Assembly (NCBI GenBank): GCA_002470645.1
Contig: DKNE01000024.1
Location: forward strand, 8,369 to 72,368
DNA from: Patescibacteria group bacterium UBA7396
GTDB lineage: Bacteria; Patescibacteriota; Gracilibacteria; BD1-5; UBA6164
Direction of reading: 5' to 3'
DNA length: 64,000 bases
Shown: piece after piece, positions 1,448 to 54,900 of the stretch
Layout of the letters: each line of letters begins with the position of its first letter
Numbering within the stretch: the first letter of the stretch is position 1
Position numbers and translations under genes: made by a program
The notes under the pieces: model-generated
The model's input: the letters and a program-made list of their open reading frames with translations, nothing else
The model's database searches: none
Told to the model about the DNA's origin: nothing

Positions 1448-2824
1448 ATGAAAAATTTTAAAGTAGAAGTTTCTAAGTGATTAGAAAAATATAATCTTAT
1501 CAGAAAGGCTGAATCAGAAAGTCTTTTAAAAGATATGTTACATAAAGAATGATTTTCTGTTTTATCCATACAAACTATGGGTGATATTGAAGTGGACGGA
1601 AATAAATTTTACTTTGAAATTATTCAAAATTGAGAGTTAAAAGTTTGAACTATCGTTTCAAAAGATATTTTTAAAGCATATGTAAAAATTAAAGATAACC
1701 TTAAATTTGATTTAAAGTATATTTATTTAGATAAAGATACGTCTCTAAATGAAAAAGAAAAAATTATTCATGAACTTCATGAACAATATAGGATTTATCT
1801 CGATGCAAATAAAAAAGAAATTCAAAAAAAAGAAGAAATAGAAAAAGATAAAATAAAAGTTGTAGAGGAGGCAAAAATAGAGGATTTTCATATGAAAAAA
1901 GAACTTGATGAAGTCTATGAAATTATTACAAAAGTTATGCAAAAATTAAGATATTTTATTGAATTACCAAATAATACATATCTAGATTTTGAAAAAAAAG
2001 AAAAATTGAAAGATTTACATAATACTTTAGTAAAGCTAAAAAATTCTACGAATATAACAAAGTTAAGACAAATTTGAGAATTAGCTTTAACAAAAGTTTG
2101 AGAATTAGAATTAAAAATACTTGAATCAACTAAAAATACTGAAGCTAAAAAATTATTATGAGAAACTAATAAGCTTTTAAAAGAAGTATGATCAAAAATG
2201 AATTTTGTTCCGAAAGAAGATGATATTTGATATATTATAAAAACTTTTTTACAAGATGTAGCAGGATTTTTAAAACCGAGTATTCAAAAAAAACAAAAAT
2301 TTAGTATAGATACTTCATCAAGTAGTTATTTAAAAACTAAATTACTTATTGAAAAATATGAGAAAAAATTAAAAATTCTTAATAAAGAAAAAAAGCAAAA
2401 ATTTATTGTTTATATTATTCCATCACCACAGAATAATAAAATAAAGGAAAATTTTTATTTAAGAGAAAAAGTAATTAAGCAAAACTTAGTAATTTTAAAA
2501 TCAAGACTTACAGGAAAAACATACTCTTATACTAAAATAGTAAAGTGATACTATACATTTTTGGAAAAAATTTTAGGATTGATTTATTTTTTAAAAACAC
2601 CACTGTTTTTTTTAATATTTTTTTATTGATCAATATTTTTATTTCTCAATATTTTAAATTTTATTTGATTATATCAAATGAATATTAATTTTTATGGGAT
2701 GTTTTATTTTTTATTTATAAATATAGCATTTCTTCTTCTTTCATTTGTGAGATGATTTTTTAGTTTAAGTTTTAATATTGTAATTTTAAGTTTTTTGTTT
2801 ATATTTTGAGTGATAAATTTTTAA
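1448..2824 (+). CDS. Hypothetical coiled-coil membrane protein (458 aa)
   Basis: ATG at 1448, in the same frame as track ORF 1892..2077, open to TAA at 2822-2824. The long Lys/Glu-rich helical N-terminal part is followed by several hydrophobic helices at the C-terminus (from about 2570 on). Confidence 0.6.
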
Positions 2825-2842
2825 TCACTCATTTTTTTGTTT

Positions 2843-4177
2843 ATGAGGTATTTATTTTTCTTATTATCTATTCTCTATTCATTTATTTTTTATGTTTTTT
2901 ATACTTTTTCTCAAAAAAAAGATATTTTTTGAAATCCATTAGAAATTCCACAAAATATAGTTAATCTTTCACTCAGAGAAAGTATTATTTTTTCTACTTC
3001 AGATACTATTATTCTTCAATCATTTTTTTGAAATCTTATTTTTGAAATCATTATTTTTTTTATTATATCACTTTTTTTATTTTTTTATTTTTCATCTTGA
3101 ATGACTGATGAAGTAGTTTGAAAAAAAGAAGAAAGTACTTTATCAAAAATTTTTACCTTTAAAAATCTAGTTATTTTTTTAAGAAAATTTTCTTATTATA
3201 TAGGATTTATTTTATTTTATCTTTCTCTTTATCTTATTTCTCTCAGTTTTGAATTTTTAAATTTCTCTCTTTTTATTTTACTTTTAAATATTTTAATATT
3301 TGCGTTTTATTTTTTCTCTCAATTTTCTGAAATATCGAGAAATTTTTTAAGAATTAATTCAGTTATTTTTTCACTGTTTTATGGAGTAAATTATTTTTTT
3401 ATTATTTTTAGTGATAATAATTATTTCAATTATATTGATTTACTTAATGGGTTTCTTATTCTTTGTATTTTTCCAATCCTTTTATATTATGAAAAAAATC
3501 TCTTAAAAAAGCAAAATTTTGATCATTCTTTACTCGTTCATTTTAGTTTGTATATTTTTTCATTTATTTTATTTTATTTTTATTATTATCTTTTTCATCA
3601 AAATCTCTTATTTTGGATGAGTATTATTTCCACTCTTTTATGAATTATTTGGTTTGAATATCTTCCAAAAATAAAACTCTTTGAAAGGGATAAAATTACA
3701 CTCAGATACATCGGAATTATTTTTACCTATATAGGAATCATTTTATGAATTATCTATCAATTTTTCTGATTTTCTTTCATTTTATTTTGTAGTTTACTTC
3801 TTCAAGTAGGATATAATTTTTTTATTCATAAAAAGTACACGAATTATATTTCTCTCGTGCTTTGAATTTTTGTATCTTTATATCTTGCTTTTTATGCAAT
3901 TATTTATTTTGAATTGATAGATTATAAATCAGTGTATTTTTTATTTTTTTGTCTATTATTATCATTTATAGGAGTGATTTTTAGTTATATATTTTCTATT
4001 TCTCGACTGATTGATAACTATATTATTCATATTTTTTGCCATATAATTAATATTTTTGGAGTTATATTATTTTTTATATTTAATAATTTTGAAATTCTCT
4101 ATATTTGAATATTATTACTTTTGGAATCTGTTTACTTTTTTTTAAGTTATTATAAATTAAATCCTAATAAAAAATAA
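2843..4177 (+). CDS. Polytopic integral membrane protein (444 aa), function unknown
   Basis: ATG at 2843, in frame with track ORF 3914..4108. I read the frame through to TAA at 4175-4177. The protein is extremely Phe/Ile/Leu/Tyr-rich with about 10-12 hydrophobic segments. Confidence 0.6.
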
Positions 4178-17929: not shown

Positions 17930-19198
17930 ATGAATTATAAAGAAACTGTCAATAATCTTAGAGACCTTGTATATAGTTGAGAAAATGTCCAACTTATTTG
18001 TGACTATGTTATTTTATGAGCTGTTTTATCATGAGCATCAGATATACATATTGAACCATTATCTAGCTTTGTTCGTTTAAGATATAGAATTGACGGAGAA
18101 TTAAAAGAAATTCTTGAATATCAAAATTTTCTTCACACAGGTATTGTAGCTAGATTTAAAATATTGTCAGAGTTGAAAATTGATGAGTCGCGTATTCCAC
18201 AAGATGGAAGAATTTCTAAAACCATAGAAGAAAAACCACTTGATTTGAGAGTCTCAACTCTTCCAACGGTTCATGGAGAAAAAATAGTAATGAGAATTGT
18301 TGATAAATCAAAAAAAATTCCGAAACTTGAAGATTTATGAATAGAAGGTCAAAATTTAGATCTTATCAAGGCGGCAATTGCTCTTCCAAATGGAATTGTT
18401 ATAACATCTTGACCGACTTGATCTTGAAAATCTACTACATTGTATGCGGCACTAAGTTTATTAAATAAAGAGAATGTTAATATAATGACCTTAGAAGATC
18501 CTGTTGAAAATCAAGTAGATGGAATAAATCAAAGTCAAGTAAAACCACAAATATGATATACATTTGCATATTGACTCAGGACGGCATTAAGACAAGACCC
18601 AGATATCATAATGGTATGAGAAATTAGAGATAAAGAAACTATAGAAATAGCGATAGAAGCATCTCTTACTTGACATCTTGTTTTGTCTACAATACATACA
18701 AATTCTGCTGCTGAAACATTGACAAGAGTTATCCAAATGGGAATACAACCTTTTTTAATACCAGCATCATTTAATGCGGTAATTGCACAAAGATTAATTA
18801 GAAAACTTTGTCCACATTGTAAAAAAGAAATAGGAGTTCAAAATTTAGACAAAGATACTTTATATAATATCCAAAATGCATTGAAACTTACAAAAAAAAC
18901 AGAACTGACAACAAGAGTATCTCCAGAAATATTAAAAAGTCCAAAATTTTATGAACCAGTAGGGTGTGAACATTGTGACCATACTGGGTATAAGTGAAGA
19001 GTTTGATTATATGAGGTTCTTGAAATGACAGATGGAGTAAAAGAAATGGTTTTAAATGGACAAAGTGCCTTTAATATTAATAAGCAAGCCATACAAGATG
19101 GAATGATATCTTTAGAGCAAGATGGTATAATGAAAGCACTCAATGGACTGACTTCATTACAAGAAGTATATAGTGTTGCTAAGACTCAAAACAATTAA
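17930..19198 (+). CDS. pilB: Type IV pilus / type II secretion assembly ATPase, short form (422 aa)
   Basis: The sequence contains ASDIHIEP...RLRYRIDG and Walker A GPTGSGKST (all three Gly as TGA at 18410-18427). It also has the Asp box, Walker B DPDIIMVGEIRD, the His box LVLSTIHTN, and a tetra-Cys motif CPHC...CEHC. Confidence 0.9.
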
Positions 19199-19226: not shown

Positions 19227-20384
19227 ATGTCAGATATATTTATATTAGACGAAGAGAATAAAAAAGTATCTTGATTATGAAATAATGCCAAGGCAAAAAA
19301 AACATTTCTTTCTAAAATAGATGATTATATTCTTTCAAAACAGTCTTTAACAATAAGAGATAAGGTTATTTTTTTCCGTCTTCTTTCAACAATGTTAAAT
19401 TCATGAATTACTCTTTCAAAATGAGTATCTATCTTGGAAAAACAGGAAAAAAGACCAACGGTATTAAAAAGTATTCTTAATAGATTTATTAAAGAACTAA
19501 AGGAATGAAAAGGATTGTCAGAGTGTTTAGCTATGTATCCAACATCTTTTTCTGCTGCTGAAGTATGAATGATAGAATCTTGAGAAAAAACTTGAAAATT
19601 AAATATTTCTTTGAAAGATTTAGCAGAGCAAGTAGAAAAAATAGCATCTATAAATGGAAAATTAAAAGCTGCTCTTATGTACCCTGCTATGATAGTTATC
19701 GTTATTATATGAGTAATAATTGTAATGATGACTATGGTTGTGCCTAAATTATTAGAAATTTTTGAATGATCAAATAATCTTCCGTGGACTACACAAGTGC
19801 TAATTTGAGTATCAGATTTTTTTGTTTATTATTGGTGGTTATTTTTATGAATTGTATTTTGTTCTGTTTTTGGAGTACTTATATGGAAGAAAACACCTTC
19901 ATGAAAATACTATTTTGATAAAATATTGTTGCGTATTCCTATTTTTTGAATGGTTTCACAAAAAATAATACTTTCAAAATTTTCTAGAGTTTTATCGTGA
20001 ATGTTGAAATCGTGAGTATCCATTGTTGAGTCTCTCAGAATCACTTCAGATGCAGTATGAAATGAAGTATACAGACAAAGAATTTTGTTTTTAAGAGATG
20101 ATATTAAAAAATGACTTAAAATATATGAATCACTTGAAGATGATCCTCTTTTTCCAGAAATGATGGTTTCTATGATTCAAATATGAGAACAAACAGCAAA
20201 AGTTGATGAAATTATATTAAAGGTAGCAGATTTTTATGATGAAGAGGTTGATAATACTATTTGAGCTATTAATAAATTATTAGAACCAATAATTATCGTA
20301 ACTATGTCTATAGTAGTATGATTCATAGCAATGGCTATTATGCAACCTATAATGAATTTGGCAGATACTGTTACGAATTCATAA
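19227..20384 (+). CDS. pilC: Type IV pilus / T2SS platform protein (385 aa)
   Basis: Two T2SSF-type repeats are present (RLLSTMLNSGITLSKGVSIL... and FSRVLSGMLKSGVSIVESL...) with three TM segments. The stop is TAA at 20382-20384. Confidence 0.9.
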
Positions 20385-20396
20385 CTCCATATTTTA

Positions 20397-20431
20397 AAAA
20401 CCTTAAAAAAGATCTTTAAGGTTTTTATTTT
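20397..20431 (+). terminator. Rho-independent terminator after pilC
   Basis: AAACCTTAAA / TTTAAGGTTT forms a 10-bp stem followed by a T-run. Confidence 0.7.
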
Positions 20432-20466
20432 TATGTGAAGAAAGTGTGAAAACTCAGATTTAATAT

Positions 20467-20493
20467 TTGACTTTTTTATATAAAATCTATAAT
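20467..20493 (+). promoter_or_regulatory. Promoter candidate P1 for the S-layer-like gene (TTGACT-15 nt-TATAAT)
   Basis: TTGACT lies at 20467-20472 and TATAAT at 20488-20493. The 15-nt spacer is short. Confidence 0.3.
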
Positions 20494-20550
20494 TTGAGCT
20501 AGTATTTATATGTGTTCCTTAAAATAATCTGAAAATTGTAAGTAAAAATT

Positions 20551-20579
20551 TTGTAATTTTATCATTTTTATGATAAAAT
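20551..20579 (+). promoter_or_regulatory. Promoter candidate P2 for the S-layer-like gene (TTGTAA-17 nt-TAAAAT with extended -10 TG)
   Basis: TTGTAA lies at 20551-20556, TG at 20571-20572 and TAAAAT at 20574-20579. This promoter would give a 5' UTR of about 300 nt. Confidence 0.4.
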
Positions 20580-20884
20580 CGTTTCACTTTAAAGTTTTCT
20601 CTTGAATGAGTGTGTTGTTATAACGCAGGAAAAAGAAAAATAGAGTTGAATATAATTGACTGTATTTTTTCTTTCCTGAGTTATGCATATGCAAACTTCA
20701 GGTTAAGGCTTTAACCTTTTTAGAGATTTTCTCTAAAAGAAGAGTATACCTAATTCTCTTTAAAAATTTAGGTTTGCTATTTTATATAGTAATAATTGGT
20801 CTGAAGGGGAAGCCTTTCAATCATGATATATTCTAAAATTATTTAGAATACATTGTATTTTATTTTTATAACTTATATTTTTAT

Positions 20885-23800
20885 ATGAGTAATACTTTAT
20901 TTAAAAAAGCTACGGCTTCTGCTGCTGCTTTATCAATAGTATTATCAGTAGTAGCTCCAGTTGTAGGAGTAAAAGCTGCTGATGCTTCTGTTGACGCTGC
21001 TAACAGATTAGCTTCTTTAGGAGTTATCGTTGATAATTCTGCAAATCCTTCAAGTTATAACTTAGGGTCAAGCATTACAAGAAGAGAAATGTTAAAAGTA
21101 ATGATGAATTTATCTTCAGTAGAAGTTACTGAAACTTGTGAAGGTAAATTTTCAGATCTTCCTGCTTCTGATTGGGGATGTAAATATGCTGAAGCTGCTT
21201 TAAAAGCTGGTTTCATTGCTGCTAATGCTAAATTCAGACCTAATGATTTAGTTACTGAAGCTGAAGCTTTAAAAATGATTATGCAAGCTAGAGGTGTAGC
21301 TGCTGCTGAAGGTGTTGAACCTTGGGGAGAAGCTTACAGACAAGCTGCTGTTACTGCTGGTGTTTTATCAGCTGGAACAACTGTTTCATCTACTTCTGCT
21401 GCTAAAAGATCAATGGTATTTGTTTCTGCTGATTCAGCAGTTTCAGTAACTACTGGAACTTCATCTGAAGAAGACGATACAGAAATCGATCTTGGTGATT
21501 TATTTGGTGATTTATTTGGTGAAGATGGTGAAGATTTAGAAACTAATACTGGTTCTACTTCTACTGGTTCAACTAATAATAATACTGGTTCTACAGTTGT
21601 AGTTACTGGAGGTGATGTTGAAGTTTCTTTAAACCCAGCTTCTCCTACTTCAGGAACTCAAATTCCTAATGTTGGTACTATCAGATTCGCTAAAGTAGAT
21701 TTTACTGCTGGTGATAAAGATGTATCAGTGAATACTATTGAATTAGGTTCAGTTGGTTTAGCTGCTGTTCCAACTTCAACTAGAGTATGGTTTGAAAAAG
21801 ATGGTAGAAGACTATCTGGAAGAGCTGCATTTTCTTCTGATAGAACTGCTGTAGTTTCTTTCGCTCCTGCTTACGTTGTTAAAGCTGGTTCTACTGAAAC
21901 TTTAGATTTATATGTTGAATTAAATACTGTTGCTGGAAATGATTTCCAATTTTCTGGAAAAATTACTTCTAGTTCAGCTGCTAATAACAAAGGAATGTTT
22001 ACAACTTCTGCTTTAAGAACAGCTTCTTATACAGTTGCTCCTATTGATTTTGAATCTTCTGGAGCTGGTTCTATCTATAATCAATCTGAAGATTATGTAG
22101 AATTAGGTAGATTTAGAGTTGCTAATAGAGATACTTCTTCTGAAACTAGAGATGTAACTTTCCAAAGTATTACTTTAAGACAAAATGGTAACGGAGACTT
22201 AACAGATCTTTCTGATTTATATATCGAAAGAAATGGTGTAAAAGTTTCTAAAGAAGTTTCTACTTCTGGTAAAGATGCTACTTTTGTTTTAAATGATACT
22301 GTTAAAGATGGTGCTTCAGCTATTTACTACGTAAAAGCTAAAGTATTAAATGTTCAAAATAATAATGGAGATACTTACCAATTCTCATTAAGAAATGATC
22401 AAGATTTAAGTGCTGTTGAAGTTCTTAACGGATACAGATCAACTGTAACTAGAGTTACTTCTGACTTAAATACTTACACTGTTAATGGTTCAGATGTTAC
22501 TTTCGCTAGAGATACTTCAGTTGAATTATCTAAAAACTATGCTAAAGGAACAAATGATGTAGTATTATTACAAGGTACTGTTACTACTAAAACTCCTATT
22601 ACATTAGAAGATCTTACATTACCATTCAATTCTAGCGTTGCTGTAAATCAATTATTTGATACAGTTTACCTACAAATTGGTGCATCTACTATGACTTGGT
22701 CAGCTTCTAGTGCTACTGGAACTACTGGTTCAGCAGTATTTAATGGTCTTGCTACTGTAAACAGTTCTGCAACTATTAAAATTTATGCAAAATTAAAAGA
22801 CAATGCTCCTGCTGCTAACTTCAGATTTGAAGATTTAAGATTAACTTCTTTTGCTACAAGAGAATATGTTTCTAATCAAAATAGAGTTGATTCTGCTGTT
22901 GGTACTATCTCTGCAGTTCAAGTATCTGTTGATTCTACTGGATTAAGCATTACTAGAGTTGATGGACTTGGTAATACAAATATCGCAGTTGGTTCAAAAG
23001 GTGTATTAGTAAATGGACTTAGTTTAGCTGTTACTCAAGGTAATGACGTAAACGTTTCTAATGCTGAATACTCACTAGTTGGATCATCTGGTTCATATGC
23101 TAATAATGCATTTGCTACATTATACGTTGATGGAACTCCTGTTTCTACAAAAACTATTAATGGAACTACTGTTAAATTTGATAACTTATCTAAAGTAGTT
23201 GGTAAAACTGCTGTTAAATTAGAATTAAGAGTTGATTTCTCTGATGCTTATGCTTCAGGAAAATTCGTAGCTAAATTATCTAATTTAGATATTATTGATA
23301 CTTTAACTTCAAATAGTATTACTACTTACTCTGTTCCTTCTTCAGCTGAATTTACAGTTGCTGATGCTAAAGGTATTCTATCTGTTTCAGATAATAATCC
23401 TAAAGCTTCACTATTCTTAGCTGGTGATAAAGATCAAAGAGTATTAGCTTTCAGAATTAAAGCTGAAAATGATTCTATTAAATTAAGAGACTTAGTGTTT
23501 ACTGGTTCTAACTTAGGTAACCTATCTAACTTCAGAGTTTTAACTCCAACAAATAAATACCTTGCTGCTACATTAAGTAATGGTACAAGTGTTGAATTTA
23601 AAAACTTAAATCCAGAAGACTCTATCGCTCAAGATAGAACTGAAACTTTCTACTTAGTTGCTGATATTAATACTAATGTTAATGAAACATTTAACGTTGC
23701 ATTAGATAAATCTCAAGTACAAGTAAGAGGATCTAATGGTACAATTAAAGCTATTGATGCTTCATCAGTAAATGTTGCTTCTAATCTACATTTAGTTGCT

Positions 23801-24241
23801 GAAAATAAAGCTGTAATTGCTAAATCATCTAACTCTTCTAAAAACTTAACTACTTCTGCATTAAGATTTACTGTAACTGCTTCTGGTAAAGATTCAGTAG
23901 TATTATCTGGTGCTACATTCGCTAACCTATTCTCTGGTTACGAAACTAGTAGTGGTAAAATAGTTGTTTATAAAGACTCAATTTCATCTAATAACAAATT
24001 AGGTGAAACTGCAGTTGGAACAACTACTGGAAATGTTACATTTACTGCTCAAAATACAGTAGATGCTGGTTCAACTAATGCATATATCGTAGTTCTTGAA
24101 GGAGTTGTTGCTCAATCAGGTGCTAATACATTAGATTGGCAAGTTTCACTTTCTAACTTAAACGTTGTTTCAGGAAGTGCTACAATTTCAGCTAACCAAT
24201 ATAACAATATGGGTGAATTCCCATTAACTGAAACTAGATAA
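20885..24241 (+). CDS. S-layer-like surface protein with N-terminal SLH-type domains and repeated beta-rich modules (1118 aa)
   Basis: This is the only long ORF that is intact in the standard-code track. It has a signal peptide (ALSIVLSVVAPVVGVKAADA) and two SLH-like segments (ITRREMLKVMMN; FSDLPASDWGCKYAEAALKAGFIAAN...VTEAEALKMI). An acidic linker and a Thr/Ser/Gly/Asn linker follow. After these come at least 5 repeats of a pattern like LAFRIKAENDSIKLRDLVF / LRFTVTASGKDSVVLSGATF. Codon usage is strongly biased (GCT/GGT/ACT/GTT/TCT). Confidence 0.75.
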   Translation: MSNTLFKKATASAAALSIVLSVVAPVVGVKAADASVDAANRLASLGVIVDNSANPSSYNLGSSITRREMLKVMMNLSSVEVTETCEGKFSDLPASDWGCKYAEAALKAGFIAANAKFRPNDLVTEAEALKMIMQARGVAAAEGVEPWGEAYRQAAVTAGVLSAGTTVSSTSAAKRSMVFVSADSAVSVTTGTSSEEDDTEIDLGDLFGDLFGEDGEDLETNTGSTSTGSTNNNTGSTVVVTGGDVEVSLNPASPTSGTQIPNVGTIRFAKVDFTAGDKDVSVNTIELGSVGLAAVPTSTRVWFEKDGRRLSGRAAFSSDRTAVVSFAPAYVVKAGSTETLDLYVELNTVAGNDFQFSGKITSSSAANNKGMFTTSALRTASYTVAPIDFESSGAGSIYNQSEDYVELGRFRVANRDTSSETRDVTFQSITLRQNGNGDLTDLSDLYIERNGVKVSKEVSTSGKDATFVLNDTVKDGASAIYYVKAKVLNVQNNNGDTYQFSLRNDQDLSAVEVLNGYRSTVTRVTSDLNTYTVNGSDVTFARDTSVELSKNYAKGTNDVVLLQGTVTTKTPITLEDLTLPFNSSVAVNQLFDTVYLQIGASTMTWSASSATGTTGSAVFNGLATVNSSATIKIYAKLKDNAPAANFRFEDLRLTSFATREYVSNQNRVDSAVGTISAVQVSVDSTGLSITRVDGLGNTNIAVGSKGVLVNGLSLAVTQGNDVNVSNAEYSLVGSSGSYANNAFATLYVDGTPVSTKTINGTTVKFDNLSKVVGKTAVKLELRVDFSDAYASGKFVAKLSNLDIIDTLTSNSITTYSVPSSAEFTVADAKGILSVSDNNPKASLFLAGDKDQRVLAFRIKAENDSIKLRDLVFTGSNLGNLSNFRVLTPTNKYLAATLSNGTSVEFKNLNPEDSIAQDRTETFYLVADINTNVNETFNVALDKSQVQVRGSNGTIKAIDASSVNVASNLHLVAENKAVIAKSSNSSKNLTTSALRFTVTASGKDSVVLSGATFANLFSGYETSSGKIVVYKDSISSNNKLGETAVGTTTGNVTFTAQNTVDAGSTNAYIVVLEGVVAQSGANTLDWQVSLSNLNVVSGSATISANQYNNMGEFPLTETR
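21494..21522 (+). repeat. 12-nt tandem repeat (GGTGATTTATTT x2.4) encoding GDLFGDLFGE in the acidic linker
   Basis: Direct reading of 21494-21522. Confidence 0.8.
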
Positions 24242-24282: not shown

Positions 24283-24317
24283 AAAAAGACTTATACGAAA
24301 GTATAAGTCTTTTTTTT
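24283..24317 (+). terminator. Strong rho-independent terminator after the S-layer-like gene
   Basis: AAAGACTTATAC-gaaa-GTATAAGTCTTT forms a 12-bp stem with a GNRA-type loop, followed by T7. Confidence 0.85.
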
Positions 24318-24365
24318 GCTTTTTGAGATGTTTTGTGTTATAATTGACTCAGTTATTAATAAAAT

Positions 24366-25123: not shown

Positions 25124-25153
25124 AAAAATCGTGAATCATTTCACGATTTTTTT
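25124..25153. terminator. Bidirectional terminator between convergent genes
   Basis: AAATCGTGAA-tcat-TTCACGATTT forms a 10-bp stem flanked by A-runs and T-runs. It abuts the stop of the minus-strand PPIase gene. Confidence 0.7.
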
Positions 25154-26663
25154 AGTTTTTATATTCAACTAACTCTACTTCAAATTTTAAGTCTTTTCCG
25201 GCAAGAGGATGATTTAAATCTACTTTTACTGTAGTTGGAGTTACTTCTACTATTTCAAATTCACCATACATAGTTGGAAGTTTTACTCATACCTTTAATT
25301 CAAATCCATTATCTTCAAAATCTTTTAAATCCGTTTTTGGTACTTCTTGAATATTTTTTTCATCTCTTGGTCAGTATGCTTCTGATGCTTTTAGATTTAG
25401 AGTCTTTTTTTCTCCTGGCTTCATTCCTATCACTCAGGCATCAAATCAAGCTACTACTTGTTTAGGATCGGTTCATACCTCAAATTCAAAAGGAGTTCCT
25501 CTTGAGTAAGAGTTATCAAACTCTTTTCCATCATCTACAGTAGTTAATACATAATGTACAGCTATTTGATCTCATTTTTTTACAGCTCTATTTTTATTTG
25601 CTTCAAATTTTGCTTTTTTTTCATCTTCTGATTTTTTTAATTCTTCTTCTAGGCTGAAATCATATGGTTTTAAGCTTCCAGATTGATATTGAACCACCTC
25701 CATTTTTATAATTTTTATTTCTTTTTCAGGTTTATCATCTTTATCTGTTTTTGAGCTTGCGATTTTATCAACATTATCAAGACCATTTACTACTTGTCCA
25801 AAAACAGAGTGTTTATTGTCTAAAAAATTATTGTCTCTTTGGTTGATAAAAAATTGGCTTCCATTCGTGTTTGGACCTGAGTTTGCCATAGAAAGAGAAC
25901 CTCTGATATTGGTAAGTTTTGGAGTAAATTCATCTTCAAAAGCATCTCCATAAATACTTTCTCCTCCCATTCCAGTTCCTTCAGGATCTCCTCATTGAAT
26001 CATAAAGTCTTTTATAACTCTATGAAAAGTTAAATTATCATAGTATCCATTTTTAGAGAGAGCTAGGAAATTATTTGCTGTTTTTGGTACATCGCTGGTA
26101 AATAATTTAATTTCTAATTTTCAGTTAGTAGTGGTCATAATTACTCAAACATCACCTTCTTTAAATCATTCTAATTGGTAGGTATTTTTCATGGTTTCTC
26201 ATGTGTTAGTTGATAAATTTTCTCCCGTTCCAGAAACAGTTCCTGGGACAAGAAGTTCAGCTTGTAGTTCTTCGTAACTTATTTTTCCTCCACAAACTTT
26301 TTTGGTAATTTGTTTGTTTTCATCAAAGATAACAAAACTTGGTACATAGTCACATTTATCACCAGTTACTTCTTGGTAACTAATAGGATTTGAAGTATCT
26401 TGGGGAATAATATAATCACCTATAAATTTTTTACCATCAGTATTAATCAGTTGCATATTAACTTGGTCTTTATAATCTCTATAAAATTTATCAAGCACAG
26501 GTACTTCATCTCTACAGTGAGGACAAAAGGTTCCTACAAAACCTATAAAAGTTCTTTTTCCAGAAATATTATTTAAATCTATATTGGGATCAGTTTCTGG
26601 AGAGGCTTTTCCACAACTCACGAGAGCGAGACTTATAGCAAGTAGCGTAAGTATTTTTTTCAT
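25152..26663 (-). CDS. Predicted 503-aa lipoprotein fusing a thioredoxin-like (CPHC) module, a cyclophilin PPIase and a SlyD-like FKBP PPIase (under table 25). An internal ATG at 26192 would give a 346-aa cyclophilin-FKBP protein.
   Basis: The signal peptide has a lipobox (LALVSC), and the Trx fold carries FCPHC. The TGA at 26201-26199 is in frame with the ATG at 26192-26190. The cyclophilin module has [27 protein letters not shown] and [16 protein letters not shown]. The FKBP module has [22 protein letters not shown]...[13 protein letters not shown]...[18 protein letters not shown]. The first TAA/TAG in frame is at 25154-25152. Confidence 0.65.
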
Positions 26664-51900: not shown

Positions 51901-54900
51901 ACTATTTGACAGTCAACAAAAGATTTTATGACTTTTGGGCTTATTAATATTTGAGATCCTGTTGCGAGTTTAAAGCCTATTGCTAAAAAATTACCTTGAA
52001 CACAAAAAACAAGAAAATATGATTCAACGATTTGATATTTGATATCAAAGGATGAGGATAATTTAGAGTATGATGTTTTTGATTATAATAATGATGGGAA
52101 TGATGATGTCATTATTCTTAAAAGAGGATGATATGTTCAACTTCTTGAAGGAACTGATGTTTTTTGAGATTTTCTTGATAGAGGAAATGTAGTATATATT
52201 GCTGATATTTCACCAAAATCTCCAATTATTGCGTGAGATTTTTCAGGAGATGGTTTTTCTGATATAGTATTATTAAATAAAGATAGAAAAATTATATTTC
52301 TATCAAATCAAATTAAAGATTTTAGAAGAATAGATACCAATATTACTTTTGATGGAAATATCAGCCAAATTATATGATTTGATATGGATTTAGATGGAAG
52401 AATGGATCTTGTAATTCTGGATGATATGTGAGATTTATATATCTTTTATGGAACACAACAAGAATGAATTTTCCAAAAAAAATTGGTTGATTCTTGATTA
52501 TGAATAGTGCTGAGTAAAAAATCTAGGAAAGATAGAGGAGCTCTTTATTATGATTGATTATATCAAATTCCTCGTGATAAAACTCAAGAAAATTTACTTG
52601 ATAGTGAAGCTTTATTGAAACAACTAGAACAAAATAAAGCTACCCTTTCTTGATCTCAAAATACTTCTCAAAATGGTATAAATGAATCATTGATTGATAA
52701 GCTCATTTTTACACAAATGAATTATACTCCAGTTTCTGCACGTTCACAAACTTGAGGTATTGTTTCTCAAATGCCAGCATCTATTATGACGCCATGAATG
52801 ATTTCTGGAATACAAAACCAACAAAATTCTATCAATGATATTATAACAACTTTTTCTTGAACTGCGACACAAAAATCACCAGATCTATCAAATGGAGTAG
52901 CATGAGTAGAAAGATGAATACAAGATGCAATTACATGAGTAGAAGATATATTAAATAGTTATACAGATGACCCAAATACACAAGTTACTACTCAAGGGAC
53001 ACAATTATCCAATGATATAACTACTTTTTTAAAAAGTGAATATGCAGAATTTCAATGATTTGAAGTTTCTAAAACATATATTGATATAAATGATGATCCT
53101 CTGAGAGGGGGAGATAATGTTGAATTGGTTATAAAAATTAAAAATAATACAACTCAACCATTAAAAGATTTTGCTTATGCTGAAAAAATTTACAATATAT
53201 TTTCTCTTTCTTCAAGCTCAAAATTTTCTCTTCAAATTTGAGAAAAAAATATTGCACATGAAGATGTATATCTCCAATCTTCACCAAGTAGTCAGTTTAC
53301 ATTTTTGATAGATAGTTATTATGAAAATGGGCAAAAAAAATATATAAATCTTCTTGCGTGAGAAGAAATGACTTTACGTATTACTTTGACTACTAATGCC
53401 TTTGAATATGGACATATTGATGTATGATTTTTTGATAATCAAACAGAACATTGAGATATTATTTTTAAAGATAAAGATGAAAATTGTTGACAGGAAGTAG
53501 GATTGTATAAGTCAATTGCTGTCAGAGAATATGAAAGAACTATTCATGCTCCTTCATGTGAAAATACACTCCCTGATGAAGTAGATGAAAATGCAGTTGA
53601 TGAAGATGGGAATGGTATTCCTGATTATATAGATAAACTGTTAAGTGGGGAAAATAGTCATATGGATTATGCAAATGACCAACTTTGAGAGTTTAATAAA
53701 GATACAGATTGAGATGGTATTCCTGATAGAGATGATACTTCGCCTGGATATGATTCTAGCCAAGATGATTTCATGAATTCTTTAAATATGGCAGATATCA
53801 ATATAGATAAAATTATGCAATGAATAGATACTATATTGGCATGATTATCTTGTGGATTTTGATGATGATGATGTATATCTTCTCCTCTTAATTGGGCTCC
53901 ATTAGCTCCTTGAAACGATCCTACTCTTTTTGGTATGCCATTGTTAGATGGATTAAATATAGGTGAATGACTTCCGATTTTCTCTGCTTTAACATGACAA
54001 TGGTATGGGCCATATTGTTGACCATCAGTTTGGCCAGCAAGTCCACTCAATACAGTATGATGTTGAGATCTTTGAGCATGAGGTCGGCTTTGAATTAATA
54101 ACCCAGCCAATTTTATTAGAGTCTTTGTTACGCCAACACTTACTTGAGCAGTATGAATTGCGGTATGTTTTTGATGACCAGCATCTATTGCATGAAGAAC
54201 AAACCCTGAATGACTTCACCCATTTGTCCCATGATGAAATTGTGTAGTTGCGGCTACTCCAATGTTATGATGTAAAAATGATGGATCAGATGGAGAAATT
54301 TATAATCTTTGAAATCCTTGAGCAAGCATAATAAATGGAAACTGTTCTTGAAATAATAATACTTCGTCAACACCATATCTATGAGAAGTATGATGAGACT
54401 ATGTAAGCTATAAAAATACAGGAAGAAAATCACCAAAATTAGATGTAGATTTAAAAGAAATTCTTTCGACAGTTGCAACTTGACCATCTCAAAGATGGAG
54501 CTTGCCAAATGAACCACTCCTTAATATCTGAAATTCATCTAACCCAGATCTTTCAGTAGATATAGATTTTTGAGCTATTTCCGAATGAAATTTTCAAGAT
54601 GTTATTGATGTGAGTATGACAAGAATATCTCCATTCCCTGACTTTATTATGGAATGGGTTACTAGACAAATCGAGGAAATTGCAAATAAATTAACAGATT
54701 TTCCTACTCTTTATATTATTCTTCCAGATTTTAAATGAGTGTTTGATAATGATTGGGGATGATTTTTAGATAAACTCCAATCTTCATATAGTGCCTGAGA
54801 GCAAACTCAACAACAAAAACAAGCGTCTATTCAATCTCAAATAGATGCTAATAAATCTCAACTAGGGAAAATCAATTGTGATAACAATACTACAGAATGT

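Follow-up and report, generated by a model that had tools for sequence, protein, structure and literature searches.

Why does a gene of 1118 codons contain no in-frame TGA when its host, which uses genetic code 25, reads UGA as glycine and has made it the majority glycine codon? The gene lies at 20885-24241 of the window, the 64,000-nt stretch of a Gracilibacteria (BD1-5) genome analysed here, and the host genome is called G000 below. A preliminary description, made from the letters of the DNA, had offered two readings of the gap: selection against UGA(Gly) in a very highly expressed native envelope gene, or recent acquisition from a donor with the standard code.

Glycine codons and layout of the locus

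The open reading frame (+ strand, 1118 aa, stop codon TAA) is open alike under translation tables 25 and 11, because no codon in it differs between them. Its complete lack of in-frame TGA and its total of 82 Gly codons are exactly as first counted, and comprise 51 GGT, 30 GGA, 1 GGG and 0 GGC. The TGA/Gly counts given earlier for neighbouring genes were also exact: 3/3 in the PilB P-loop, 6/13 at 25152-25574 and 34/44 at 53821-54600. The depletion is frame-specific, with the trinucleotide TGA occurring 0 times in frame 0, 6 times in +1 and 65 times in +2. Genome-wide, TGA makes up 12725 of 23801 Gly codons (53.5%; 1002 called genes), and for 0 of 82 against this mean the binomial P is 6 × 10−28, making the gene the top outlier among the 1002. 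Set against GGA alone (genome TGA:GGA 64:36), 0 TGA versus 30 GGA gives P ∼5 × 10−14. The features of the locus are the following.

17930-19198, +: pilB, conserved syntenic neighbour upstream, TGA use normal (13/29)
19227-20384, +: pilC, conserved syntenic neighbour upstream, TGA use normal (21 in-frame TGA)
20385-20884, +: AT-rich intergenic region of 500 nt upstream of the CDS, which would contain promoter and leader
20885-24241, +: CDS of the SLH-anchored envelope protein (codon counts; orthologs in relatives)
20885-20977, +: putative signal peptide of Sec type, aa 1-31, MSNTLFKKATASAAALSIVLSVVAPVVGVKA, predicted cleavage before ADAS (read from sequence)
20978-21448, +: triple SLH cell-wall-anchor module, aa 32-188 (Pfam, PDB profile, AF2)
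21449-21607, +: acidic Thr/Ser/Gly-rich disordered linker, aa 189-241 (AF2 pLDDT <50)
21608-24238, +: all-beta body, a chain of Ig-like beta-sandwich domains, aa 242-1118 (AF2 and Foldseek)
24283-24324, +: intrinsic terminator with a perfect 14-bp stem, GAAA loop and U-run (terminator scan)

The 500-nt intergenic region begins with a terminator-like inverted repeat of pilC near 20400-20431. A candidate promoter follows (TTGACT at 20467, a 15-nt spacer and TATAAT at 20488); the promoter scan of 20385-20884 returned weak sites only, and no Shine-Dalgarno motif could be read before the ATG. The 'long leader' of the preliminary description corresponds to nothing more than this 500-nt intergenic stretch, in which a leader is putative. 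The terminator is as strong as had been claimed: the 100-nt region folds at −22.9 kcal/mol (z −4.1), better than any of 200 shuffles. ARAGORN found no tRNA within the window.

An SLH-anchored envelope protein

The putative signal peptide, recognized by eye, consists of a basic n-region followed by a hydrophobic h-region, with V-K-A as the cleavage motif. Residues 1-32 are disordered in the AF2 model (pLDDT <50), and the N-terminus of the protein is conserved among orthologs. SLH-like domains had been proposed, and they were recovered both by Pfam (SLH match at aa 88-128, E = 3 × 10−6) and by a PDB profile (aa 26-188, E = 1 × 10−16). A profile built from 38 orthologs matches the SLH trimers of Paenibacillus alvei SpaA (6cwc, E = 1 × 10−16) and Bacillus anthracis Sap (3pyw, E = 1 × 10−12), and the AF2 model places six helices within aa 32-187, which fits three SLH repeats. 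Paralogous copies of the anchor domain sit on further proteins encoded by the genome and do contain TGA. The body (aa 242-1118) is modelled at pLDDT mostly 85-94 with secondary structure consisting entirely of beta strands; it is presumed to be the lattice-forming or exposed part. A Foldseek search with the full model returned tandem Ig-like arrays only (PrgB, alpha-2-macroglobulin MG domains, integrin legs) at low TM-scores and no specific S-layer fold.

The genome also encodes a CsaB-like pyruvyltransferase (PF04230 at G000:C2:16417-17340, 101 bits versus a cut-off of 25), the substrate of which is putative. CsaB makes the pyruvylated cell-wall polymer that is bound by SLH domains. The combination of predicted Sec signal peptide, triple SLH anchor, linker and Ig-like chain makes it most likely that the product is an S-layer protein and, by inference, one of the proteins that the cell makes most abundantly. 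It resembles the Bacillota S-layer proteins (B. anthracis Sap/EA1, P. alvei SpaA, G. stearothermophilus SbsB) in its predicted signal peptide, triple SLH module and beta-sandwich chain, and the Bacillota SLH systems also in the CsaB-like enzyme and the strong terminator after the gene. It differs from them in that its host belongs to the CPR/Patescibacteria lineage and its body has no detectable sequence similarity to theirs, the structural matches being to generic Ig-like arrays; its lattice and abundance are presumed. In the published metaproteome of one Gracilibacteria MAG, an SLH-domain protein is far on top, with 106 counts versus 1-8 for EF-G, S1 and aminoacyl-tRNA synthetases (PMC11452946, Table S8). 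In the same table the few proteins detected for MAG WB02no18_25_26 (G007 in our set), of the same genus as the host, include no SLH protein; the table is shallow, at about 40 proteins, and so cannot settle abundance. Codon bias speaks for high abundance indirectly.

TGA use across genes, relatives and silent sites

In G000, the TGA share of Gly codons falls stepwise from the genome mean of 53.5% to 39% in ribosomal proteins (S10-spc operon: 88 TGA, 139 GGN), 25% in EF-Tu (10/40), 24% in EF-G (15/62) and 0% in the S-layer gene, with RpoB, L1 and Ndk likewise low. EF-Tu and the ribosomal proteins, on which the preliminary description had staked its reading, thus lie below the genomic average. 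Since ribosomal proteins still use 39% TGA, selection would be weak in ordinary highly expressed genes. The complete genome of a relative, G014, uses 77% TGA overall, yet 8% in EF-Tu (3/38) and 15% in EF-G (9/59). There the S-layer ortholog (1/74) is the top outlier and its paralog (1/60) the second. Per-gene TGA fractions in the two genomes are correlated (rho 0.40, p = 7 × 10−17, 413 ortholog pairs), and in the ribosomal-protein and elongation-factor genes of G014 the GGN/TGA shift is the largest among 13 synonymous contrasts.

Other codons point the same way. The noted bias to GCT, GGT, ACT, GTT and TCT, with AGA for Arg, is borne out by codon counts. GCT, ACT, GTT, TTA, AGA, TTC and TAC are raised in the S-layer gene and ATA and AGT lowered, in the direction of ribosomal-protein and elongation-factor genes but more strongly. 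All 12 non-TGA contrasts shift as in ribosomal-protein genes, mostly further. The gene ranks 833/843 for T4, 834/843 for C2 and 3/843 for ATA use, and on the codon axis it lies closest to EF-Tu and EF-G. The genome-wide correlation of TGA fraction with a codon-adaptation score, proposed earlier as a check, did not appear: a log-odds score derived from ribosomal proteins gave rho 0.05; it is confounded by AT-richness, TTA and ATT being shared by AT-rich low-constraint genes. The strongest genome-wide correlates of TGA fraction are gene GC (rho −0.59) and GC at codon positions 1+2 (rho −0.46), the latter being the best predictor taken singly, and in an unweighted RSCU PCA the expression signal is split across two axes. 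The score was replaced by separate indices in a binomial regression. With bias indices independent of Gly, the regression predicts 25.6% TGA for the S-layer gene, and the observed 0 has P = 3 × 10−11 (dispersion 1.8). Thus, the gene would need selection well above that on EF-Tu, or an extra factor.

The depletion is found throughout the clade. Orthologs are TGA-poorer than their neighbours in 19/19 genome contexts (18 significantly) and in 35/35 loci of GTDB species (median 1.6% versus 51%), and the ortholog lies below EF-Tu of the same genome in 14/14 genomes. Its TGA content is 0-1% in mid-GC relatives. Avoidance is not absolute, as some orthologs hold 13-29 TGA (17-36%).

Silent sites of the gene are under purifying selection. 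Compared with the relatives G006 and G008, its 4-fold sites differ by 0.10-0.12 while those of neighbouring genes differ by 0.44-0.59, so that they change ∼5 times more slowly. The CDS is 95% identical to that of G006, whereas the 500-nt upstream region is only 75% identical. A recombination tract was considered as the cause of the low silent divergence and ruled out, as the high identity to G006 and G008 ends at the CDS borders and the leader and 3' spacer have diverged like the flanks. Compared with G023, 33 of 63 conserved Gly codons differ; GGT and GGA swap freely and TGA is involved in none of the changes.

Explanations for the absence of TGA

We consider it probable that this is a native S-layer gene kept UGA-free by selection that scales with translation and opposes AT-biased mutation. 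Such mutation would keep turning GGA into TGA, a synonymous change in code 25, and this pressure may be how TGA came to encode most Gly across the genome. UGA would be the translationally inferior codon, read by one dedicated tRNA-Gly(UCA), with GGN read by one tRNA-Gly(UCC). The tRNA search returned one copy of each, RF2 is absent from the gene complement, and the absence of tRNA-Gly(GCC) was judged on the complete G014, since G000 also lacks His and Trp tRNAs. Selection against UGA would then grow with how often a gene is translated, giving the gradient of 53/39/25/0%, and in the S-layer gene it may be strong enough that TGA essentially never fixes while GGT and GGA exchange freely. The reading of the preliminary description, that highly expressed genes are selected to avoid UGA(Gly), is thus supported by the gradient and the clade-wide depletion. 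We infer that the driving factor is expression level, itself deduced, and that UGA costs the cell mostly elongation efficiency, as ribosome time per UGA, with missense damage at particular sites mattering less. TGA fraction showed no trend with position along genes, a test of a processivity or nonsense-error cost.

The other reading first offered, acquisition from a donor in which UGA is a stop, was rejected and is scarcely credible. The intact frame under table 11 would suit it, as would the tetranucleotide composition, the most atypical of 341 genome windows, and the GCT, GGT, ACT, GTT and AGA preferences may resemble those of low-GC Firmicutes S-layer genes. However, the gene has matches in 41/41 relatives, with full-length orthologs in three families; it follows pilB-pilC in 10 family genomes; the named homologs among the best 120 matches are all Gracilibacteria; many orthologs carry 1 to 29 TGA; and native genes that contain TGA have paralogs of its N-terminal anchor. 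Nesting within a standard-code lineage was therefore not found. The atypical k-mers expected with it are present, but they would follow from its extreme codon bias and from its amino-acid make-up: at 4-fold sites the gene is fully host-like, with 0.6% G+C against 35% in the truly foreign-looking ORFs of the genome. The gene is native and vertically inherited in a code-25 Gracilibacterium. A donor within code 25 is also very improbable. The allele might have recombined recently from a low-TGA Gracilibacterium, for instance of the mid-GC lineage with its 0-1% TGA, and be too young to have gained TGA. The protein is 96% identical to that of G006 and 54% to that of G001, when neighbouring genes are about equidistant from both and EF-Tu is nearer G001 (97%) than G006 (89%), and the atypical k-mers could be taken the same way. 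Against this, the silent sites have taken on host composition completely, the close match to G006 and G008 does not extend past the CDS, and relative to G023 exchange between GGT and GGA has reached saturation without any Gly codon turning into TGA. The depletion also recurs in 35/35 species at any baseline, with synteny conserved.

We give equally little weight to a mutational or compositional artefact, in which a local regime (transcription-associated mutation or higher GC) makes G-to-T at codon position 1 rare. The GC correlations described above and the 33% GC of the gene (genome 26%) speak for it, but the extra GC is due to amino-acid composition and the 4-fold sites are 99.4% A/T. The gene also holds 71 off-frame TGA, the adjoining leader and neighbour genes diverge normally, and the regression with GC terms still gives 25.6% TGA. 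Moreover, where heavy transcription leaves the coding strand more exposed as single strand, G-to-T would be expected to rise. A cost in accuracy rather than speed is the strongest competitor, although still unlikely. UGA would be misread by near-cognates such as tRNA-Trp(CCA), and a crystalline lattice may tolerate miscoded subunits badly. Enrichment proteomics of BD1-5 found Trp, Ala, Asp or Lys at UGA in single peptides versus 40 with Gly (PMC4032931), and both Shulgina and Eddy and a 2026 NAR paper indicate UGA/UGG ambiguity in code-25 lineages. That the S-layer gene exceeds its general codon-bias prediction, and EF-Tu in 14/14 genomes, would also fit. Akashi-type accuracy tests were divided: TGA in G014 is a little less frequent at conserved than at variable Gly sites (Mantel-Haenszel OR 0.84, Z −2.9), but in G000 it is not avoided at conserved sites (OR 1.08, Z +1.6). 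Avoidance is a property of the whole gene and follows other efficiency-type biases, and with 31% identity against 77% for PilB, the protein evolves fast and evidently tolerates single substitutions.

A more speculative idea, to which we attach a low probability, is that UGA-free genes, among them the main envelope protein and, in G014, a second paralog, form a code-robust core that insulates envelope synthesis should the single tRNA-Gly(UCA) fail or run short, whether through poor charging (A36 instead of the identity element C36), stress, or attack by phage or anticodon nucleases. Avoidance would then protect the cell against a decoding channel that is fragile and was added recently, beyond any gain in speed, and the per-gene UGA fraction would be a quantitative proxy for expression and essentiality in uncultivated code-25 bacteria.

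Translational selection on synonymous codons in bacteria is a classical phenomenon, associated with Ikemura and with the CAI of Sharp and Li. In it, bias peaks in envelope and translation genes, where synonymous rates are lowest. The present case, under selection on UGA, is similar: bias rises from average genes through ribosomal proteins and elongation factors to a presumably abundant envelope protein, and synonymous divergence is ∼5-fold lower. It is unlike the classical case in that TGA, the codon disfavoured here, departs from GGA at codon position 1 and used to be a stop, and it therefore reports the cost of a genetic-code change, not a wobble preference within a codon box. The UGA-free S-layer gene adds a bacterial case to a phenomenon already known from the trypanosomatid Blastocrithidia, where a reassigned stop codon is likewise distributed non-randomly: in-frame reassigned stops are depleted in ribosomal-protein and high-CAI genes, which was read as translational burden (PMC12153298). 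Blastocrithidia, however, is a eukaryote that reads UGA as Trp with a near-cognate tRNA-Trp(CCA), whose anticodon stem has 4 bp and which competes with a mutated eRF1 (PMC12153298), whereas the code-25 host is bacterial, lacks RF2 and has a cognate tRNA-Gly(UCA) dedicated to the codon. In the code-25 clade the reassigned codon is, moreover, the majority synonym (53-90% of Gly), and the conflict between mutation and selection is therefore far more visible. A full-text literature search, with the SR1 paper of Campbell et al. 2013 lying outside it, returned no report of expression-linked UGA use in code-25 bacteria.

If selection scaling with translation is the cause, a reassigned stop can become the majority codon by mutation pressure alone and yet be selected against under high translation load. 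The cost, seen as avoidance in 35/35 testable species of the clade, would thus persist long after reassignment, which bears on codon-capture and ambiguous-intermediate models. Per-gene UGA fraction may serve as a cheap, sequence-only proxy for expression in uncultivated Gracilibacteria and SR1 bacteria, and UGA-free genes should be expressible without recoding in standard-code laboratory hosts. Contigs rich in such genes may mislead genetic-code inference and binning. The S-layer gene product is a candidate dominant surface protein and a target for cryo-ET, antibodies and host-interaction work.

Glycine codon use in the S-layer gene and its host

The S-layer gene, named here for its most likely product, encodes an SLH-anchored envelope protein with the following parts.

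20885-24241, + strand: S-layer gene CDS, 1118 aa, same reading under translation tables 11 and 25
aa 1-31, + strand: predicted signal peptide
after the signal peptide, + strand: triple SLH module, with profile matches to the SLH trimers of P. alvei SpaA (E 1e-16) and B. anthracis Sap (E 1e-12)
aa 189-241, + strand: disordered linker
after the linker, + strand: body, all-beta, model mean pLDDT 83.8

It has 82 Gly codons and no TGA among them, exactly as claimed in the preliminary description; they comprise 51 GGT, 30 GGA and one GGG. The counts given there for neighbouring genes were also reproduced on recounting (TGA at 3/3 Gly codons in the PilB P-loop, 6/13 at 25152-25574 and 34/44 at 53821-54600). 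The TGA trinucleotide as such is not avoided, because the gene contains it 6 and 65 times out of frame, in +1 and +2 respectively. The host assembly was examined whole (1.21 Mb, 38 contigs, 26% GC), using 1002 genes called under code 25 as ORFs that begin with ATG, do not overlap and reach 90 aa or more (coding density 90%). TGA makes up 12725 of the 23801 Gly codons in these genes (53.5%), so that 0/82 has a binomial P of 6e-28, and no other gene of the genome deviates as strongly. Tested against GGA alone (0 TGA, 30 GGA), P is ∼5e-14.

The preliminary description had suggested selection at high expression as the cause of the lack of UGA. A per-gene, genome-wide comparison with ribosomal-protein and elongation factor genes agrees with this: the TGA fraction, TGA/(TGA+GGN), is 53% for the genome as a whole and declines stepwise through ribosomal proteins (39%) and EF-Tu plus EF-G (25%) to the S-layer gene (0%). 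Nineteen genes of the S10-spc ribosomal operon (contig C21) sum to 88 TGA and 139 GGN, or 39%, and TGA is scarce in EF-Tu (10/40), EF-G (15/62), RpoB (28/90), L1 (3/21), Ndk (0/11) and two more SLH proteins (3/50, at C11:6740-7810, and 17/74). The missing TGA is thus the end of a gradient rather than an isolated oddity; use is nevertheless lower than in the two elongation factors pooled (Fisher p 9e-8). Several SLH and envelope proteins of the host, the one at C11:6740-7810 included, are thus low in TGA. Beside the S-layer gene, a thioredoxin-cyclophilin-FKBP lipoprotein (25152-26663, − strand) has 11/44 (25%), about the 16th strongest case in the genome.

For nearly every amino acid, the preferences of the S-layer gene run in the same direction as those of the ribosomal-protein and elongation factor genes, but are stronger. 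GCT use is 0.88 (ribosomal proteins 0.55, genome 0.43) and ATA use 0.05 (0.21 and 0.36, respectively); TTC, TAC, AAC, TTA and AGA are used more often and AGT less often, and the bias described earlier, for example to GCT and AGA, was confirmed. On an unsupervised codon axis, EF-Tu and EF-G are the gene's closest neighbours, and its ranks are 833/843 for preferring T to A at 4-fold sites, 834/843 for two-fold codons that end in C and, at the low end, 3/843 for ATA. Since G+C at its 4-fold sites is 0.6%, TGA avoidance is not a GC effect. The GGN/TGA log-odds shift is 0.64 in ribosomal proteins, 1.25 in the elongation factors and at least 5.2 in the S-layer gene; for GCT/GCA the values are 0.36, 0.59 and 1.95, and in other contrasts the gene's shift is often 1.5 to 3 times that of the elongation factors.

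The preliminary description proposed correlating TGA use with codon adaptation. A simple score derived from ribosomal proteins does not predict the TGA fraction across the host genome (rho 0.05); it is confounded by genes that are AT-rich and under low constraint. What does work is a binomial regression on five indices independent of Gly, in which every term but one is significant. It predicts 25.6% TGA for the S-layer gene against the observed 0 (P 3e-11, dispersion 1.8).

The SLH-like domains of the preliminary description are borne out by the SpaA and Sap matches, and a CsaB-like pyruvyltransferase is encoded in the host; for the body there is no specific fold match, only generic tandem Ig-like arrays. 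The strong terminator corresponds to a 14-bp stem at the 3′ end, and what was described as a long leader is 500 nt of non-coding DNA preceding the gene. No Shine-Dalgarno motif is found before the start of this presumably highly translated gene (20855-20884), where the 30 nt are almost pure A/T. Metaproteomic backing for an abundant SLH protein is mixed: in a published Gracilibacteria metaproteome (PMC11452946), an SLH protein tops one MAG, with 106 and 49 counts, but the list for the same-genus MAG contains no SLH protein.

Native origin and selection at silent sites

Recent acquisition from a standard-code donor, the alternative offered in the preliminary description, would also leave a gene without UGA, and the tetranucleotide profile of the S-layer gene is the most atypical among 341 windows. 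Its extreme codon bias and Ala/Thr/Ser/Val-rich composition would, however, produce such a profile. The protein is matched in 41/41 relatives, with full-length orthologs spanning three families, and in 10 family genomes the gene sits immediately 3′ of pilB-pilC, with S-layer identity as low as 31% and PilB at least 77%. Among the best 120 of 197 homologs, every named one is annotated 'S-layer homology domain-containing protein [Candidatus Gracilibacteria]' or much the same, and native host proteins that carry TGA include paralogs of the N-terminal anchor. Two other TGA-poor ORFs of the host assembly do look as though they could have come from standard-code donors, or could be contamination:

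C2:84882-85631, + strand: TGA 0/18, GC 46%, outside the window
C2:7337-8596, + strand: TGA 1/31, GC 38%, outside the window

Both have 35% G+C at 4-fold sites in a genome of 26% GC. From ortholog spread, synteny, homologs, paralogy and the contrast with these host-unlike ORFs, standard-code acquisition of the S-layer gene is therefore rejected.

Silent sites are unusually conserved. At 4-fold sites the S-layer gene differs by 10-12% from two relatives (G006 and G008), compared with 44-59% for neighbouring genes. A recombination tract could also lower silent divergence, but high identity to G006 is restricted to the CDS (0.95), with the leader (0.75) and 3′ spacer (0.83) diverged like the flanking genes (0.79-0.83), which argues against it. 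Against a further relative, G023, 33 of the 63 Gly codons that are conserved show a difference, always an exchange of GGT and GGA and never TGA, whereas TGA/GGN accounts for most Gly codon changes in neighbouring genes. Thus, Gly codons turn over freely, yet TGA is not fixed.

Identity of the S-layer protein is 96% to that of G006 (L021) but 54% to that of G001 (L026), with EF-Tu at 89% and 97%, respectively; genes beside the S-layer gene are about equally distant from both. By sequence comparison, this mismatch suggests that one S-layer type has replaced another in this genus, or that the history of EF-Tu is discordant.

Conservation across the clade

In 19 relatives examined over 20-kb contexts, TGA use is 0-24% in the ortholog against 50-90% in its neighbours (0-1% against 13-27% in mid-GC genomes), significant in 18/19. 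A wider GTDB genome scan, counting loci whose context supplied 40 or more Gly codons, placed the ortholog below its neighbours in 35/35 (median 1.6% against 51%). TGA is absent from 9/40 orthologs and occurs at most once in 18/40, and the ortholog's TGA fraction is below that of EF-Tu in 14/14 low-GC genomes. As the genomes are related, none of these counts are independent trials. Two ortholog contigs (L101 and L106) sit in MAGs labelled Bdellovibrionales and Mycoplasmataceae, and are probably mis-binned or mislabelled Gracilibacteria.

The pattern was replicated in a single-contig relative, G014 (1.05 Mb, 23% GC), where TGA provides 77% of Gly codons.

C1:491824-495291, − strand: S-layer ortholog, TGA 1/74
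C1:487530-490271, + strand: second S-layer body paralog, 913 aa, TGA 1/60, divergently oriented to the ortholog
C1:191402-192445, − strand: DapD-like hexapeptide-repeat protein, 347 aa, within loci L050-L051

The ortholog is the top outlier and the adjoining paralog the second; another relative, G005, also has two S-layer gene copies. EF-Tu (3/38) and EF-G (9/59), assigned by reciprocal best hits, are again TGA-poor, GGN/TGA shifts more than any other of the 13 synonymous contrasts compared in ribosomal-protein and elongation factor genes, and the regression on Gly-independent indices replicates. Over 413 reciprocal-best-hit pairs, per-gene TGA fractions in the host and G014 correlate (rho 0.40, p 7e-17), so that the extent to which a gene avoids TGA is itself conserved. 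The DapD-like protein (0/41 TGA, 33 GGT) is the third strongest outlier, perhaps through high expression or transfer. From host to G014, as TGA goes from 53% to 77%, GGA collapses from 7128 to 915 and GGT rises from 2191 to 3329. This fits a mutational route from GGA to TGA, with GGT shielded because it is two steps away.

Decoding and the proposed cost of UGA

G014 has only two Gly tRNAs, UCC and UCA, in a total of 33 tRNAs, and the host assembly shows these two as well.

Host C7:10682-10760 and G014 C1:711876-711954: tRNA-Gly(UCA), 79 nt, anticodon at position 37

The acceptor of tRNA-Gly(UCA) carries the Gly identity elements G1:C72, C2:G71, G3:C70 and U73, and its length and anticodon position imply an enlarged D-arm or D-loop; both are common to the two genomes, which differ at most silent sites. 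RF2 was not found, the sole match being an RF1 paralog under the cut-off. GGT, favoured at high expression, must presumably be read by tRNA-Gly(UCC) via four-way wobble of U34 (superwobble literature is cited in PMC13092985).

An Akashi-type test for TGA avoidance at conserved Gly sites within genes was null in the host (OR 1.08) and showed weak avoidance in G014 (OR 0.84, Z −2.9). No trend of TGA fraction with position along genes was found, so a processivity signature is absent. Taken together, these results indicate a cost that behaves per gene and scales with inferred expression, favouring a model in which UGA would reduce elongation efficiency, the more so the higher a gene's expression. 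Misreading at UGA is a less likely cost, for which it counts that proteomics occasionally found Trp, Ala, Asp or Lys in place of Gly there (PMC4032931).

In Blastocrithidia, reassigned stop codons are avoided in highly expressed genes (PMC12153298). No report of the same avoidance in UGA=Gly bacteria was found in the literature searched, which did not cover the founding SR1 paper, and the S-layer gene adds a bacterial instance. Distinctive of the Gracilibacteria case are that UGA is read by a dedicated cognate tRNA with which no release factor competes, that the reassigned codon is the majority Gly codon, and that use falls to zero in one 1118-codon gene, with avoidance kept across the clade.
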